From the IMG/VR virus record IMGVR_UViG_3300028410_000746: 64,000 bases of DNA, one strand, 5' to 3'. The stretch comes from a virus. Taxonomy: Duplodnaviria; Caudoviricetes. The position numbers were made by a program, and so were the translations under genes. The notes below the pieces were generated by a model. It worked only from the letters and a program-made list of their open reading frames with translations, had not been told where the DNA came from and ran no database searches. Below, one piece after another: positions 10,069 to 62,079 of the stretch (within the stretch, counting starts at the first letter, position 1; each line of letters begins with the position of its first letter).

Positions 10069-10345
10069 TCTTCAAATGTTCAGTATACCTAACTCCTTGA
10101 TTCATAAGAGGAATCCTGTTGGCATAGGGTGCGTCGGTTTACTTTACCAAATCGTACCCTGTGGTACAAGCTCCCAAGAGCGACTAAGCGGACCTTACTA
10201 CAAGCTCTCTCCGGCTGTCAAGAGGTTTGCAGCTCTTTCCACATGCGGTACATGTGGGCGCGGATGCGGTCATAAGAGTCCGTGTCGCCTTTTTGAGCGA
10301 TGCCGCGACCCTGGAGCGTGAGGAACACCTCTCCAAAAGCCTCAT

Positions 10346-10498
10346 GGGGACATCCCCGCGTACACGGGGAAGGGGTCCAGGTCAGGCACACGGGCCGTAC
10401 GGGAGTGGGGACATCCCCGCGTACACGGGGAAGGGTGCTACTAGACTCCGGGGTGCATGGCGGTGCGCAGGGGACATCCCCGCGTACACGGGGAAGGG
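10346..10498 (-). CRISPR. Type I-E-like array 2 (3 repeats, 2 spacers)
   Basis: Repeat CCCTTCCCCGTGTACGCGGGGATGTCCCC at 10346, 10407 and 10470; spacers 32 and 34 nt. The G-U in the stem supports minus-strand transcription. Confidence 0.92.
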
Positions 10499-10640
10499 TC
10501 TGTGCCAAGAAGTCACAGGGTAGGGAACACGTAAGTATTCGGTTTTCAAAGACTTTCAGGGTTCAGTGTCAAAGAGCGTCACCCTTGGGCGACCTCTCCG
10601 ACGTCCTTATGGTAACCACACCTAAGAGGGCCTGTCAAGC
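10499..10640 (-). promoter_or_regulatory. CRISPR leader with sigma70 promoter (leader copy 1)
   Basis: TTGACA-N18-TACCAT; highly similar to 39984-40125 and 44025-44165. Confidence 0.8.
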
Positions 10641-11982: not shown

Positions 11983-12011
11983 AGGGACATCCCCGCGCGT
12001 GCGGGGAAGGG
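11983..12011 (-). CRISPR. Solitary type I-E repeat
   Basis: CCCTTCCCCGCACGCGCGGGGATGTCCCT; no second repeat one spacer away on either side. Confidence 0.8.
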
Positions 12012-12016
12012 CCGGG

Positions 12017-12055
12017 CGCATCGACAATGCTACCACACCCTGAAAGGGGCGTCAA
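12017..12055 (-). promoter_or_regulatory. Sigma70 promoter directly upstream of the solitary repeat
   Basis: TTGACG-N17(ends TGTGG)-TAGCAT, about 16 nt before the repeat. Confidence 0.7.
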
Positions 12056-19741: not shown

Positions 19742-19814
19742 TAGTCACGATGGGACTCGAACCCATACACGGGGATTTAGAATCCCCTGCTCTAACCCGT
19801 TGAGCTACACGACT
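19742..19814 (-). tRNA. tRNA-Sup(CUA), amber suppressor, copy 1
   Basis: Cloverleaf; anticodon arm GGGGA-TT CTA AA-TCCCC; A73; no encoded CCA. Confidence 0.9.
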
Positions 19815-22899: not shown

Positions 22900-23717
22900 T
22901 GGTCTTGCTGGACCTCTCCAGGAGGTGCGAGGAACTCCCTGAGCATCCCGTCTCCCAACAACAATGGCAAGAGGGTTCCTCATCCTGGAGGGTGGTGTTT
23001 GAAGCTGGGTCAAGTTTGCGTAGCCAGGGTGCAAGCCACGTCTCTCAACGGGGCAAGTTTTGGATAACCCGAGCTACATCAGACCCAGCTTCAAGCTGGT
23101 CCGGCCGGAGCCGGTAGAAAGCTTCCCGGTCAAGGTAGCGTAGGAGGGTATCCCCCAGCCCAACCCAGACCCACTCTCGCAGGTAGGGCTCGACATGGGG
23201 GTTTCCAGTAACCCTGCCTACATCAGACCGGAAAGAGGTGTCGCAGATGCGGTGTGGTCGCGAAGGGAACGGAAGGGAAGGGACCATCCCCATGTGCGTG
23301 GGGAATCGATCGAGTTACCATCTCTCCCACCCGCTAGAAGCCCCCTCGGTGAAGCCCGAGACCTCCCTCCGGGTATGAACCGGAGGGTGTGCTGATTACA
23401 CCAGAGGCACCGTGTCACCTCAAGGGTAACTTCGGCAGGACCTCTCCACGCACTTTGCAGTGCCTACCTTTGCTGATATCCGCGACAGGTAGTAATCCAG
23501 TGCTCCGTTCTGGACTTGCACCAGACCTTCCCGCAGACCTCTCCACCAAAGAAGAGAGATGAGGGGCGTGCCTCTAAAGGTACTCGGCGCTTCATCGGAG
23601 GATCTAAAGACCCGTCCATTTCCGTCGCCTCGTACGCCAACACTTTCGGAACAGAACGTTCGATCAAGAGAGCGACGAGGAAGATTTTTGCGGTAATCCT
23701 CGTCAGCAGATCGAACG
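22900..23717 (-). ncRNA. Highly structured non-coding region in the tRNA operon (several scaffold copies)
   Basis: No credible ORF; many nested stems and repeated motifs. Confidence 0.55.
23280..23308 (-). repeat. Degenerate solitary type I-E-like repeat
   Basis: CGATTCCCCACGCACATGGGGATGGTCCC. Confidence 0.45.
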
Positions 23718-39192: not shown

Positions 39193-39466
39193 AGGTTATT
39201 GAGGAAAGGTTGCCCACGACGTGGGGGCTCAAAACCGCGAATCATACACCACCCTCGGACTGGACAGACTCCCACAGCGCCACACTTAGCACCGCAGGAG
39301 CTGCCATGCCCATGTAACATACCATAGACATCGCACCCCCGACAAGCGAGATGCCCATGGAGACGACATCTGAATACGGCCGAGGGAGGGGGCGCGATAC
39401 ACGCTCCGAGATGTGACCCGCCACCGTGCTTACGAGCTGACTCGGAAGGGGCGCCACGTGTGTCAA

Positions 39467-39983
39467 GGGGACATCCCCGCGTGTGCGGGGAGGGGTTGAC
39501 CGAGCACTGCTTCAGGTTGTCGATGTGGGGGACATCCCCGCGTACACGGGGAGGGGAAAACTTCTCCTGGGGGGTCTCTGCGGGCGCGGGGGACATCCCC
39601 GCGTGTGCGGGGAGGGGTTCCATCACTGCGCAGGAGCCGATGGCGGCGACGGGACATCCCCGCGTGTGCGGGGAGGGGTGCGCGACACAAGTCGTACATA
39701 AGCTCATTGCGGGGACATCCCCGCGTGTGCGGGGAGGGGTGACTCCGAGACCTCCGAGAGTGAGTCGCCGAGGGGACATCCCCGCGTGTGCGGGGAGGGG
39801 AAGCACGTCCGCGTCGGGCTGGTCAAAGCCAAGGGGACATCCCCGCGTGTGCGGGGAGGGGCCCGTCGTCTGGACCGCCGCTGACCTTATGGAGGGGACA
39901 TCCCCGCGTGTGCGGGGAGGGGAACTCATGGCGAGATGGTCTCCCAGGTCATACGGGGACATCCCCGCGTGTGCGGGGAGGGG
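39467..39983 (-). CRISPR. Type I-E-like array 3 (9 repeats, 8 spacers)
   Basis: 29-nt repeat CCCCTCCCCGCACACGCGGGGATGTCCCC every 61 nt (39467, 39528, 39589, 39650, 39711, 39772, 39833, 39894, 39955); all spacers 32 nt. Confidence 0.97.
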
Positions 39984-40125
39984 TCTGTGCCAAGAAGTCA
40001 CATGCGTTAGATCGCGTAAGTATTCGGTTTTCAAAGACTTTCAGGGTTCAGTGTCAAAGAGCGTCACTCTTGGGCGACCCTCTTGACGTCCTTACGGTAA
40101 CCTTGGTGAGGGAGACATGTCAAGC
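39984..40125 (-). promoter_or_regulatory. CRISPR leader with promoter (leader copy 2)
   Basis: TTGACA-N18-TACCGT; homologous to 10499-10640. Confidence 0.8.
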
Positions 40126-42789: not shown

Positions 42790-42863
42790 TGCGCCGAGTG
42801 GGGCTCGAACCCACAACACGGGGATTTAGAATCCCCTGCTCTAACCCGTTGAGCTATCGGCGC
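42790..42863 (-). tRNA. tRNA-Sup(CUA), amber suppressor, copy 2
   Basis: Perfect 7-bp acceptor GCGCCGA/TCGGCGC; same D and anticodon arms as copy 1; A73. Confidence 0.92.
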
Positions 42864-42871
42864 TAAAACCT

Positions 42872-43127
42872 CGCAGAAGACTCCGGTTGTACGGCCGGAG
42901 TCCTCCTGTAGCCCTTATTAGGAGCGTCGTGTCAGGCAGCGGTATCACCCGCGTTCCGTCACCGAGGTGCTTGCCTTGAGTCAGTGTTTCCAGAAGCTGT
43001 GTGCTCCGCAGAACTGTCCGGTTATACGGCCGGAGTTCTTTGTAACCCTTACTAGGGGCGTCGTGCTAGACAGCGGTTTCATCCGCGTTCCGGCACCGGA
43101 GCTGCTCTGTCCTCACTGACTGAAGAC
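42872..43127 (-). ncRNA. Tandem pair of a ~125-nt structured RNA motif
   Basis: Two diverged copies with compensatory stem changes, between a promoter (about 43132-43163) and the CUA tRNA. Confidence 0.6.
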
Positions 43128-43170: not shown

Positions 43171-43422
43171 TCACTCTTCTTCCGAGGAGTCGTGTTCGGG
43201 ACGGGCGGCGGAAAACGCGTTCAGGAAACGCTCCCGTCGCGCCGCACCCTCGGAGGGCTTCCCGAGCTGAGCTTGGAGGTACGGGATAATAGCCGAAGAG
43301 GCGGCGGGACGGCCTGACCCCCTTGAGAGTGCCTCCAGGATTTGATTGCTGCGCGAGGTACGCCCCACGGAGCCGTTATCTTCATTCGACACGGGGACCT
43401 CCACGTTCATCCAAGGCATCAC
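43171..43422 (-). CDS. Hypothetical protein
   Basis: Tiles operon. Confidence 0.4.
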   Translation of the reverse strand: MMPWMNVEVPVSNEDNGSVGRTSRSNQILEALSRGSGRPAASSAIIPYLQAQLGKPSEGAARRERFLNAFSAARPEHDSSEEE

Positions 43423-43930
43423 GGCCCTTCTGAGTAAGGGTCATCGTCGGGCCGCTCAACTTCACCTGCTCCCAGGTCGCCAACTCGCCTATGGCATAGC
43501 TCAAGGGCTTGAGATCCGGGGCGGCCACGCGAGCCTGAGCCGAATCCATCACAAGCACGTGCCAACGCTCCCCCGTCTTGTCTACGAGACGACACAAGCT
43601 CTTCGCATCCAGGGCTCCGTGTATCCACAGGAGCGACAAGATCGTGAGATGCACATCTTCCAGGGGATAGGTCACCACACTCAGATCACCCTCTCCCGCA
43701 GGGTCACTTGGATCACGAGGGGGAGGCGGCTCAAACTCCGTGAGAGCGCCCTCCTGGGATGTAAGACCCCATTTACGACGCAACGACACCCGCGTGTCCC
43801 GTATCAGGCGGCCTATTCGCACCGTCTTGACGTACTTCCAGCAGGTGATGCTCCAGATGAGCACAAGCAACACGAACACGCTCACGAGAGCATACGATAC
43901 CCACAGAGCGGACGATTCCCACCCCATCAC
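43382..43930 (-). CDS. Membrane protein with a possible C-terminal winged helix
   Basis: N-terminal TM helix; RBS GGAGG. Confidence 0.55.
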   Translation of the reverse strand: MMGWESSALWVSYALVSVFVLLVLIWSITCWKYVKTVRIGRLIRDTRVSLRRKWGLTSQEGALTEFEPPPPRDPSDPAGEGDLSVVTYPLEDVHLTILSLLWIHGALDAKSLCRLVDKTGERWHVLVMDSAQARVAAPDLKPLSYAIGELATWEQVKLSGPTMTLTQKGRDALDERGGPRVE

Positions 43931-43995
43931 AAACCTCCAGTCACGTCAAAGGAGCGTGCCCGTTGTACGAACTGCGCGGCATCAAAGTGCATCCA

Positions 43996-44024
43996 CGGAA
44001 CATCCCCGCGTGTGCGGGGAAGGG
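43996..44024 (-). CRISPR. Solitary type I-E repeat with a full leader
   Basis: CCCTTCCCCGCACACGCGGGGATGTTCCG; no neighbouring repeat. Confidence 0.85.
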
Positions 44025-44165
44025 TCTGTGCCAAGAAGTCACATGAGCGGAATCACGTAAGTACTCAGTTTTCAAAGACTTCTCAGGTTCAGCGCCGTTC
44101 GGTGTCACCCTTGGGCGACCCTCTTGACGTCCGTATGGTAACCCTGAGGAGGGAAACCTGTCAAC
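44025..44165 (-). promoter_or_regulatory. CRISPR leader with promoter (leader copy 3)
   Basis: TTGACA-N18-TACCAT; homologous to the other two leaders. Confidence 0.8.
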
Positions 44166-44279
44166 ATGAGCAAGCTTCGCTTCCGCCAATTGCTTCAAAT
44201 GCGCATCCCTCAACCCGAACCTCCTGTCACAGTGTGAGTCCGAAGAGAGAGGATACCTCGAAGTCACACACCTGTCAAG

Positions 44280-44377: not shown

Positions 44378-44462
44378 GGTGTCGGGAAGGAGTCGAACCT
44401 TCATACCTCCGAAGAGGAACTGGGCCACACGGAGGCGAGCCTGCCAATGCTCAACCGGACGC
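44378..44462 (-). ncRNA. Tyr-like tRNA paralog C (loop GT GTG GC); its own acceptor and anticodon stems do not pair
   Basis: D arm, long variable arm and T arm intact; halves complement paralog B. Confidence 0.6.
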
Positions 44463-44467
44463 CCAAA

Positions 44468-44551
44468 TGCGCCGGGTAGGAGTCGAACCTACAGGTCTCC
44501 GAAGAGAACCCTCGCTACAACCAGCCGAGCTTACCAATGCTCAACCGACAC
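44468..44551 (-). ncRNA. Tyr-like tRNA paralog B (loop TT GTA GC); its own anticodon stem does not pair
   Basis: D arm, long variable arm and T arm intact; halves complement paralog C. Confidence 0.65.
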
Positions 44552-44662: not shown

Positions 44663-44749
44663 CAATGACCTCTCACGGAATCGAACCGTGACCCGCAGGG
44701 GGAGACACCCCCACGTAGGTGAGGAAAAGTCTGCGACAAGAAGTCATTG
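44663..44749 (-). ncRNA. tRNA-like element with an 11-bp acceptor-like stem and T arm, no D arm
   Basis: CAATGACTTCT/AGAGGTCATTG; CACGG-TTCGATT-CCGTG. Confidence 0.45.
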
Positions 44750-58322: not shown

Positions 58323-58633
58323 TGCGCAAACCATGGGTGTGCCGTGACTCCCCGACCGCCGCAGTCGTCACATGGAGGATGAGAATAGAGAACCCCCTCG
58401 CCGCCACACGCGCCACACTCAAGGTCGTAGAGGACCCCTTGGTAGTCACACCTCGCGCAGCCGTCCGGATCTTCCCCGTCTCCTTCCCCTCCGCAGGCCG
58501 GACACGGAATCTCTTCCAGGAAGCCATCCCCCCGACAGACCTCGCACTCGGTCTCCAGGAGGAGATCCTTTCGGACCCCCTCCATCATACAGACCTCGCA
58601 CTCGACGAGCATTGTGGGAGGCATGGGACTCAT
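58319..58633 (-). CDS. DnaJ-type CxxCxGxG Zn-finger protein
   Basis: Multiple CxxCxGxG repeats. Confidence 0.7.
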   Translation of the reverse strand: MSPMPPTMLVECEVCMMEGVRKDLLLETECEVCRGDGFLEEIPCPACGGEGDGEDPDGCARCDYQGVLYDLECGACGGEGVLYSHPPCDDCGGRGVTAHPWFAQ

Positions 58634-61600
58634 ACAGACGGCTCCTGGACGAAGGGCTCGGTCACCGGGAGAGCCTTGGTCCAGTCACGAAGAACGTCTC
58701 GGAACACCAGCGGCGGAATCTGCTCCACGCGGTCCACCGGGTAGAACGTCATTTCGCTGAGCACCAGGGCGTCCACGTCACGCAGGTCCTTGGTACACTG
58801 CGAGGGCATGATGACCTCACGGATGCCCGCGCGATGCGCGGCGATGACCTTCTCCTTGATGCCGCCGACCGGGAGCACCTGACCCGTGAGCGTAATCTCA
58901 CCGGTCATGGCCACCTCTCGGCGCAGCTTGAGCCCCGCGAAGCGAGAGAGCAAGGCGCTGAACATCGTGATGCCTGCGGAGGGACCATCCTTGGGGATGG
59001 CGCCAGCCGGCACGTGGATGTGAAGGTCGTGCGACTTGATCATGTTGGTGTCTACTCCATACAGATCGCCATGCGCACGCAGGTAGCTCAGGGCAGCCCG
59101 GACAGACTCCTTCATGACGTCTCCGAGCTGGCCCGTCAGCGTCACCTCACCCTTACCCCCTTTCATCGCCTGCACCTCAATGAAGAGGATGTCTCCACCT
59201 ACCGCCGTCCAGGCCAAGCCCGTTGCCACGCCCTCCTGATCCTCACGCTGCGACACCTCCGAGATGTACCGAACGGGACCCAGCGCCTTCTCGACCCGCC
59301 CCATGTCCAGGGGGAACACCGCACCGAGACGCTCAGCCTCCGGAAGCTTGACGACATCCACAGCGATAGAGCGGCACAGGTCTCCCAGCCTACGGTTCAG
59401 GCTACGGACGCCCGCCTCACGGGTGTACTTGTCCACCACGTGGTGGACCACCCCATCCGCGACCTCGATCTGGTCGGGCCCCAGACCGTGGGCGGCTACC
59501 TGCTTGGGGAAGAGATAGCGAGTCGCGATCTCATTCTTCTCGAACATCGTGTAGCTGGGGACCTCCAGGATCTCCATACGGTCACGCAGCGGAGCCGAGA
59601 TCGTATCCAACCGGTTGGCCGTGGCGATGAAGAGGACCTTGGACAGGTCAAGGTCTATCTCCAGGTAGTGGTCGTTGAACGTCGAGTTCTGAGCCGGATC
59701 AAGAACCTCCAGGAACGCGGCGGCGGGGTCGCCTCGGAAGTCCGAGCCCACCTTGTCGATCTCGTCCAGGAGGATGACCGGGTTCATCGTGCCGGCCTTC
59801 TGAAGCGCTCGAACGATGCGGCCCGGCATGGCGCCCACATAGGTACGACGGTGACCACGGATCTCGGACTCGTCGTGCATACCTCCAAGGGAGATGCGCG
59901 CGAACTTGCGGCCCATCGTCCGGGCAATGGACTTGGCGATGGACGTGTTATGCGTCACAATCACGTCATCAGTGATGTAAAGAGAATCAGGAGCAGAGAC
60001 CTTGATGCACTGAGTCTCCTTGACACCTACCGCTACGATATCAGAGATGAACCTCTTGGGAGCGTACTTACTCTTGGAGACCCACCGCTGAGCTTTGGCG
60101 TCACACCAGAAGGGACACTGACCCGCCGACATTGAGACCGTCACGTTGTACGCCAGACGACCCGAACGCCTCTCCCCATCAACCGTATATGACGGCTTTT
60201 TCATCGTCACCCGTGTCACCCCCCCAAGCGACCGGACCAACCACTGCACGTCATCACACAATCGCGTCGACGTCGTACAAAAAGAAACCCTACAACCCGT
60301 CGCGTCTACAGTACCGCCAGTGTCCATCAAGCCCTGCAAAAGAGCGAGCCTCTGCTCTACCGAGCCGTAAAGGTACACATAAGGTACATGCTTTTCGTAC
60401 GAGTAGAGCCCCGTAAGTTCCAGAGCATCCAGCTCCACCTGCAACGCGTCCCGTACAGACCCCTTTCGCCCTGCGGTCAAACGATAGTCACAGGTCTCCG
60501 ACGCTTGCTTGCGCATCCGAACCTCCCCCGGCAAGGCGGCAGCTACGCGTGCGCAAATATCACCCTCTGGGTTTGAAAAACCAACGGAAGCTCCCGTAAG
60601 GCCTCCATCTCCCAAGAGCGCCCCCAAGAGGTACGGGTCAAGGGGTACGGACTTTTCCGCAAACTCCAAGGGCTGGGTCAGAGGGATAGAATGGTTGCGG
60701 CGAGCGTCCGAGCCGTACCGAAGCGTCTCTCGGATTTGCTCCAGAGACTTCACCGACCCCTCACGGGAAGCCTTCCGATCGAGGTCGGTATGCGTGTACC
60801 ACAAGTGCTCGTCGCAACACTCTGTTGATGAGCCGTCTTGAAACTCCACACGATACACCGGCCGCGTGCCTTGAGGGAACGCGCCCTCCACGTGATGAAC
60901 GCCCCCGTCCGCACCCATGACCGCATCACCTACCGCAAGCGTACCCATCGCAACCCAACCCTTCGGGGTCAACACCCGCGCATCCAAAGGCTGCGCCTTG
61001 CCCACACCGGGAGGGCCCACGAAGCACAGGATCGGGCCGTTCATGTCCTGCTTGAGCGCCTGAACAGCCAGATGCTCGACCACCCTTCGCTTCACCTTCT
61101 CCAGGCCGTAGTGGTCCGCGTCGAGCACATCCTCCGCGCGGACGACATCCAGGTTGTCCTCGCTCTCGACGCCCCACGGCACATCGAGCATCTGCTGGAT
61201 GTAGTTGAGCGTCACCGAATACTCGGAGCTGGCCGGCTGCATCGCGTCGAGTCGACGATGCTGCTTCAGGACCGCAGCCTCCACCTCCTCAGGCATGTCT
61301 GCCTCCTGAATACGCTCAAGCAGCTCCTCCGTCTCGGAGATGTCCTCACCGAGCTGGTCCTTGATGACCTTGAGCTGCTGGCGAAGGATGTACTCACGCT
61401 GAATAGACTTGCTGCGCTCCTGGAGCGACTGGTTGATCTCACCCGCCAGCTCCTGGCGCGCGATACGCTCCCCCAGGATGCGCAGACACCGAGACGCGCG
61501 CTCCGTGATGTTCGGCTCCAGGTAGAGAGCCAACAGGTCCTCATCCTCGAAGCGGGGCGCGAGCATGTCTGTAAGGTCTGAGAGGGAGCCCACAGCACGC

Positions 61601-62079
61601 ACGCGCTCGAACTCCTGCTCGGGAGCGTCCGGATCGTCTCCCAGGACCTGAAGCGTCTTCTCCTGAAGCGCCTCGAACAGCGCTTCATTGTACTCCGCCT
61701 CCTTGTCGAACTCCGGTCCAATGACCTCGAAGTGACCCATCAACGGCGCGGAGGCATCCTCCGGAATCTCAAGATCCAGGAGCCTCAGCCTCACCTCCCC
61801 GGAAGAAATGACCGTATAGTCGTTCGCGTTCGGGTTCGGGATGATCTTGATGCAGGACACCAGGGTCGCGATCTCGTGGACCTCATCCATCGAGGACAGC
61901 GTGAGCACGTCCGGAGACTTCTGAAGCACGACCGCGATCTTGAAAGGCGCCGGCGAGTCTGCACCCTCAATGACCGCCAGGGAGCGTGCTCGACCGACCC
62001 GAACAGGGATCATCTGTAGCGGGAAAAGAGGGTTCTCGCGCATGGCGATCACGGGAAGGTACAGGGTGTCAGCGCTCAT
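58630..62079 (-). CDS. lon: ATP-dependent Lon protease containing an intein
   Basis: LON N-domain, GPPGVGK|T, LLDEIDK, DGPSAG catalytic Ser, IGGIKEK-type VGGIKEK. Confidence 0.97.
59947..60996 (-). mobile_element. Class-3 intein (350 aa) with a LAGLIDADG domain in the Lon P-loop
   Basis: Starts AQPLD, ends VTHN before Thr+1; WCT signature (HLW, TQC, VTHN). Confidence 0.92.

Follow-up and report, generated by a model that had tools for sequence, protein, structure and literature searches.

Scattered CRISPR arrays without Cas1 and Cas2 are frequent in huge phages, and to our knowledge the birth of new arrays in these phages is largely undescribed. The available part of Al-Shayeb et al. 2020 (PMC7162821) describes huge-phage CRISPR-Cas systems that are phage-borne, lack Cas1/Cas2 and have short arrays with spacers against other phages. 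In E. coli, a plasmid carrying a leader and a repeat acquires spacers, so that a leader with one repeat suffices as a type I-E adaptation substrate (PMC5039180). SRU/Racr elements (Faure 2019; Camara-Wilpert 2023, PMC10651486) have one repeat behind a promoter and no partial repeat in the next 100 nt; no cas genes lie in the same element, and the repeat mimics that of the host. Virus-borne mini-arrays (Medvedeva 2019, PMC6858448) bear leaders, are loaded in trans and are aimed at competing viruses. CreA/CreR-type crRNA-like regulators of cas loci (10.1101/2023.03.03.530964) have a stand-alone repeat in a genome with a cognate system, and their seed partly matches a promoter next to a PAM. Recombination between a spacer and its protospacer (Varble 2019 and Watson 2018, cited in PMC8616872) is described, in the available part of that source, for host arrays with phages and transducing particles, and not for the spread of arrays within one phage genome.

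The locus analysed here lies in a stretch of phage DNA of 64,000 nt, here called the window. On its minus strand our analysis confirmed a full leader and a single repeat, as the original prediction had it: a promoter, a 140-nt leader and one 29-nt type I-E repeat form a solitary unit, which is followed by 68 nt and then by the ATG of a 181-aa gene. The locus shares with the huge-phage systems the features named above, but type I-E (0 occurrences), spacer-less leader-repeat units and repeats joined inside genes are not mentioned in the same part of that paper. Leader, single repeat and both intact inverted-repeat ruler motifs are common to the unit and the E. coli substrate; however, the phage unit is natural, has no cas1/cas2 in cis, carries a family-specific dyad and is known from sequence alone. 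Mini-arrays have 1–2 spacers between repeats, with a full or degenerate distal repeat, and no viral cas genes, whereas the unit has one repeat, no demonstrable spacer and no such distal repeat. Compared with the CreA/CreR type, it lies 114 kb from the cas genes, has a full leader and shows no seed match longer than 9 nt in about 102 of the 373 kb of its phage, made up of the window, the preceding 18 kb (L023) and the cas locus (L052). An intact repeat that stands flush with phage sequence, as at the sister array A3, is what spacer-protospacer recombination would be expected to leave.

The unit also has the SRU layout, with a single repeat behind a promoter and no partial repeat nearby (by offsets on the 3′ side; the 5′ side is the leader). 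It differs in having a full array leader, and the phage encodes matching Cas proteins in its own cas operon and uses the same repeat in active arrays. In the Racr that has been tested, inhibition comes from the RNA segment upstream of the cut (PMC10651486), which here would be the same product as any array leader yields. We consider a Racr-like sponge very unlikely, in which the leader and hairpin RNA would bind Cas6e and Cas7 after the cut without a 5′ handle and damp the I-E system of the host or of the phage itself. Although a strong promoter with a solitary repeat is found and RacrIF1 acts via such an upstream product of 70–76 nt (PMC10651486), a sponge of this kind would hit the phage's own system first, and stand-alone viral repeats described to date are without recognisable leaders (PMC6858448). 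No host with the same leader-repeat junction was found in the species genomes searched, and the leader end with the repeat had no match in viral contigs. The repeat core is present in nine Actinomycetota genomes, mostly as single variant copies, which is too weak to name a host.

Leader, repeat and assemblies

Coordinates of the features of the solitary unit and related elements in the window
Feature	Position	Strand	Remarks
Leader promoter TTGACA-18-TACCAT	44135..44164	-	TTGACA at 44164-44159, 18 nt, TACCAT at 44140-44135
Second, upstream promoter TTGACA-17-TATCCT	44193..44278	-	directly after tRNA-Asn
Leader hairpin, GUCGCC/GGUGAC stem	44101..44121	-	kept in 5 of 6 leader copies, little covariation
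BoxA-like antitermination motif, TCTTTGAAA core	44068..44080	-	invariant in six leaders; putative function
Leader-end dyad TGTGAC-N5-G(G/T)CACA	44027..44043	-	17 nt, 2 nt ahead of the repeat, invariant in six leaders
Single type I-E repeat	43996..44024	-	base 29 is G; 28 nt identical to repeats 3-5 of the cas-proximal array (outside the window)
32 nt after the repeat	43964..43995	-	no target found; first half of a coding-like open frame
22-codon open frame	43927..43995	-	begins at the first base after the repeat; TGA overlaps the next ATG; ribosome-binding site 43938-43934
181-aa gene	43382..43927	-	N-terminal hydrophobic segment; orthologue in the relative
tRNA-shaped RNA	44666..44745	-	520 nt upstream of the solitary unit; T arm canonical at 44690-44674
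Sister array A3	39467..40123	-	same leader, 9 repeats, 8 spacers, two of which match the rival phage; intact terminal repeat
Native gene truncated by A3	39242..39466	-	residues 17-84 of the relative's 84-aa gene align from the first base after the terminal repeat
Sister array A2	10218..10638	-	same leader, 3 repeats; intact terminal repeat, then a 41-codon coding-like tail

Analysis of the leader revealed 73–84% identity along its 140 nt with five further leaders in the phage. These belong to A2 (10.5 kb), A3 (40 kb), an array located 9 kb ahead of the window, and two cas-locus arrays. The homology begins at the −35 box, which is invariant across the six leader copies, the −10 box being nearly so. 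The leader is a mosaic, whose middle follows the cas-proximal leader and whose 3′ part follows the leader 9 kb before the window; five of its 140 positions are private. The 18-nt leader end occurs four times in the window, against 0.06 expected. Nine of 11 nt of the boxA-like motif agree with the Myxococcus CRISPR-leader and rRNA boxA quoted in 10.64898/2026.07.09.737519. Behind the second promoter stands a boxA-like motif, CATTTGAAG, which is likewise seen in the phage family's other leader class, to which array A1 and most arrays of a 437-kb relative (G001) belong.

The leader-end dyad closes one leader class of the relative as well, and a dimeric factor with a role in adaptation or regulation may bind there. 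Dyads like TGTGAC-N5-GTCACA are family-wide, being found in the relative at G001:13617, 17019, 23280 and 110731; one further copy there (G001:274367) has no repeat after it.

The repeat has a 7-bp hairpin (z −3.7) and an 8-nt handle. It had been read as a hybrid, with a 5′ end like arrays 2/3 and a 3′ end (GTTCCG) like array 1. This does not hold, as its first 28 nt show no mismatch (0/28) to repeats of the cas-proximal array, which heads the cas operon; the final G, which recalls array 1, sits at the PAM-derived position 29. No second repeat was found at offsets +28 to +39, where at least 14 of 28 positions differ from every repeat. Since no spacer lies between two repeats, the unit is an array seed or remnant and not a working array.

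Assembly collapse of a longer array, which the original prediction had named as the way in which it could fail, is extremely improbable and is refuted for the dominant allele. It is a general risk for repeats and nothing more speaks for it, whereas the assemblies of three pipelines (ENA, JGI and Logan) agree base for base (100% identical) across leader, repeat and downstream sequence, and the 29-nt repeat is shorter than their k-mers. One Logan contig runs continuously from the leader end via the repeat into the gene; a Logan break at 44034/44029 is explained by other loci with the same leader end and repeat start. In none of the three assemblies had spacers been added at the leader-repeat junction.

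Own type I-E genes, sister arrays and a join inside a gene

The phage contig (ENA k141_181878, also present in the JGI and Logan assemblies) is 373,477 bp long and looks circular. It has 60% GC, at least 16 tRNAs on the minus strand, and genes for Lon protease and topoisomerase II. A cas3-cas7-cas6e-cas5-cse1 operon was identified about 70 kb before the window and about 114 kb from the solitary unit, and the Cascade and Cas3 genes cognate to the solitary repeat are thus present in the same genome. The phage Cas6e was found with the Cas6e of the relative as a query (39% identical). No separate cse2 was among the matches listed at the cas locus, where the Cse1 gene encodes 735 aa, and no cas1 or cas2 was called within 10 kb of cas6e. 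We infer that spacer addition to the arrays of this phage must occur in trans.

Five of the 37 true spacers of the phage match a rival phage (42.9 kb, 70% GC) with 0–3 mismatches, beside AAG, AAC or AAT. This indicates that the arrays are real. The other 32 were without a match in the rival DNA examined. In four of the five spacers with known targets, base 29 of the repeat ahead of the spacer is the same nucleotide as the last base of the PAM.

One and the same cassette is found in this genome with 0, 2, 6 and 8 spacers. At A3, the terminal repeat is joined at codon 17 to a native gene, with an alignment score of 93 against a shuffle maximum of 54 and a tblastn alignment that begins at 39466. 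The first 16 codons and the ribosome-binding site of this gene are gone, while the gene is whole in the relative (G001:144619-144816). No close uninterrupted allele from which the PAM could be read was found for the A3 join, and a flush join into a gene was demonstrated for A3 only. The open tails behind the arrays are coding-like, with p values against shuffles of 0.004 for A3, 0.0007 for A2 (41 codons) and 0.05 for the array 9 kb before the window (23 codons). Compared with internal repeats, the terminal repeat has no mismatch in the solitary unit, A3 or A2 and one in the array 9 kb before the window; in two of the three cas-locus arrays it is degenerate (5 and 6 mismatches).

Further repeats stand alone in this phage. 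One at 11983-12055 of the window (minus strand) lies directly behind a promoter, without a leader, and is followed by a 19-codon coding-like tail. A variant at 23280-23312 (minus strand), in a tRNA-rich region, has a 3′ end like the repeats of the relative. At the cas locus, a solitary repeat with a diverged leader lies 31 nt ahead of the cas-proximal array promoter (L052:4586), and degenerate repeat hairpins are found between cas7 and cas6e (L052:9930).

The relative (IMGVR_UViG_3300021978_000001), reached via a neighbouring gene, is a complete genome of 437,490 bp. It has Cas6e and 65 repeat matches, and no Cas1 was found anywhere in it. None of its spacers matches the examined phage DNA and none is self-targeting. 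Its arrays (L026, L027, L030) are intergenic, also among the cas genes. They often close with a degenerate repeat, and the 3′ end of this repeat adjoins, or itself provides, the ribosome-binding site that follows. Other solitary repeats are present too. At G001:405031 (minus strand), a promoter and a short leader are followed by one repeat, about 32 nt and a terminator, which makes this site a cleaner candidate for a one-repeat guide RNA than the solitary unit of the phage.

From the repeat to the 181-aa gene

The original prediction also considered that the 32 nt after the repeat make a crRNA mimic, and proposed a search for their targets. Our search, in which every sixth base was left free, found nothing in viral or metagenome contigs, in contrast to the A1 spacer, which was matched in the metagenome set. 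Across the whole relative the best match had 11 mismatches, and across about 27 kb of the rival phage's 43 kb it had 13; nothing was found among annotated phages. Taken alone, this blank is weak evidence, because most true spacers are also without a match. With no target, no distal repeat and a stretch that reads as native coding DNA, the mimic finds no support.

The same results bear on a mini-array with one guide, in which the 32 nt would be a real foreign spacer that has lost its distal repeat, with a 5′ handle made by Cas6e, a nuclease-trimmed 3′ end, and Cascade-Cas3 directed against another element. We regard this as unlikely. Base 29, a G, would suit an AAG PAM, and the blank search counts for little when only five of 37 true spacers match the rival DNA examined. 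In E. coli, crRNAs of unit size work even if Cas6e is missing (PMC4499155). Some units with a single repeat may be mini-arrays whose distal repeat has decayed (10.1101/2023.03.03.530964), and G001:405031 has a comparable layout. However, besides the many mismatches of the best matches and the contrast with the A1 spacer, neither a repeat remnant nor a terminator was found after the 32 nt, and the open frame continues beyond nt 32 to the next start codon.

This 22-codon frame is coding-like, with a p value of 0.036 against mononucleotide shuffles, which flatter real DNA. Its coding signal is 0.36 in codons 1–10 versus 0.01 in codons 12–21, the latter with the ribosome-binding site. It is probably the 3′ end of a truncated native gene. 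As neither a homologue nor an uninterrupted allele of the tail was found, we infer its native origin by analogy with A3 and from the modest p value, and the 32 nt would then be native phage sequence and not a foreign spacer. Against this native origin, a spacer captured from some foreign gene would likewise appear coding along its 32 nt, and it is in codons 1–10 that the coding signal is the stronger. One source considered for the tail, the 143-aa gene that lies before the 181-aa gene's orthologue in the relative, was rejected, as it shows no similarity.

The gene that had been placed at 43382–43930 stands, but its start is the ATG at 43927 and not at 43930. The 181-aa protein had no match in Pfam and no homologue by word search; its C-terminal part is possibly a winged helix, which is a weak structural lead. 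The orthologue in the relative (37%, E 1.9e-10) lies mid-operon without leader or repeat, which indicates that the 181-aa gene does not need the cassette. In the slot after tRNA-Tyr and tRNA-Asn, the relative has an opposite-strand gene and no leader or repeat.

Trimming of the 181-aa gene's mRNA by Cas6e, as predicted, is plausible because the phage encodes Cas6e. The repeat might even be kept for this, as an exapted element by which Cas6e removes the leader and sets the stability of the mRNA or ties its level to Cas6e. Cas6-made 5′-OH ends are more stable than 5′-triphosphate ends (PMC10651486), and repeat-like hairpins lie ahead of genes elsewhere, both between cas7 and cas6e and where terminal repeats of the relative abut ribosome-binding sites. 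We nevertheless hold such exaptation to be quite unlikely, considering the mid-operon orthologue. Moreover, the unit retains the whole adaptation-side dyad, which processing alone would not need, and with only five private changes in 140 nt, recent copying accounts for the conservation of the leader.

Origin of the unit and its tRNA-shaped neighbour

The solitary unit is probably a copy of leader and repeat that was joined to native phage DNA and at present holds no spacers. It has the look of a seed from which a new array could grow, and less that of an RNA acting as guide or decoy. The nascent array of the original prediction fits these data: the leader, the dyad and the repeat have all stayed intact, and other copies of this leader are followed by real spacers. 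A unit that was never filled and one that was emptied by repeat-repeat recombination look the same.

In the preferred reading, the cassette would have been copied to its present site and joined to native DNA at the repeat edge. Transcription would start from 44164 and from the second promoter at 44278, and the boxA-like motif may allow Nus antitermination. The phage Cas6e would cut the transcript at the base of the hairpin and stay bound to the leader RNA, and the released mRNA would begin with a 5′-OH 77 nt before the ATG of the 181-aa gene. The unit could thus be a substrate for spacer integration by host Cas1-Cas2 in trans, and meanwhile may serve as promoter and boxA leader of the 181-aa gene.

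The join itself may come from a crossover between a spacer and its protospacer in the phage's own DNA, a plausible source and the likeliest of those considered, which we put forward tentatively. Such a crossover would delete the PAM and leave an intact repeat flush with native sequence. It would also predict the 32-mer as a spacer in a donor array, and this was absent from the arrays in the examined 27% of the genome. Capture of a long DNA end by Cas1-Cas2, or a deletion, are the alternatives as a source of the join. Self-protospacer hotspots and self-spacers are enriched around arrays (PMC5737086). It is possible, if doubtful, that leader-repeat units spread within this phage via self-targeting, so that a self-spacer recombines with its protospacer, the resulting seeds grow into arrays, and the solitary unit is a seed before growth. 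The crossover would then copy promoter, leader and repeat into a gene and remove the PAM, and the first 32 nt of the seed could still guide Cascade against sibling phages with the intact gene.

The cassette series and the cut of A3 into a gene at the repeat edge offer a concrete and testable route for the birth of arrays, and the solitary unit is a natural substrate of a leader plus one repeat with which acquisition in trans can be probed. As a functional RNA the unit is probably unremarkable; the most worthwhile parts are the join inside a gene at A3 and a chimera of tRNA and repeat.

This chimera, the tRNA-shaped RNA, is likely more interesting than the solitary unit. A 7-bp acceptor stem and a canonical T arm are present, and the D and anticodon arms are missing. 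The leader end recurs as the 5′ strand of the acceptor, and a diverged I-E repeat fills the middle (44729-44701) in exact register. Over 47 nt the chimera is 83% identical to the leader end and repeat of L052:2670-2625 (E 5e-8). In our literature search, no paper on tRNA-like CRISPR-repeat RNAs was found. The possibility that arrays grow inside a tRNA shell, with the tails as decayed T arms, was rejected, as the alignment scores are background (p 0.15, 0.70 and 0.32 for the solitary unit, A2 and A3). This, and the presence of the leader-end dyad throughout the family, make it more likely that the leader end was borrowed by the chimera.

At G001:148800-148900 (minus strand), 1.1 kb away from the 181-aa gene's orthologue, the relative has a tRNA-Lys(UUU)-like shell whose D loop contains an I-E repeat (G001:148859). 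In the window, two tRNA-Tyr-like genes with broken anticodon arms lie beside tRNA-Tyr (44378-44551, minus strand). Two tRNAs with a CUA anticodon, of the amber suppressor type, were found at 19742-19814 and 42790-42863 (minus strand); a tRNA-Lys(CUU) of similar sequence is present at the comparable site of the relative. Two tandem structured elements of 100 nt, 82% alike, lie ahead of a CUA tRNA (42872-43106). The Lon protease gene (58630-62079, minus strand) has a LAGLIDADG-like insertion, which is probably an intein; the Lon of the relative has 806 aa.
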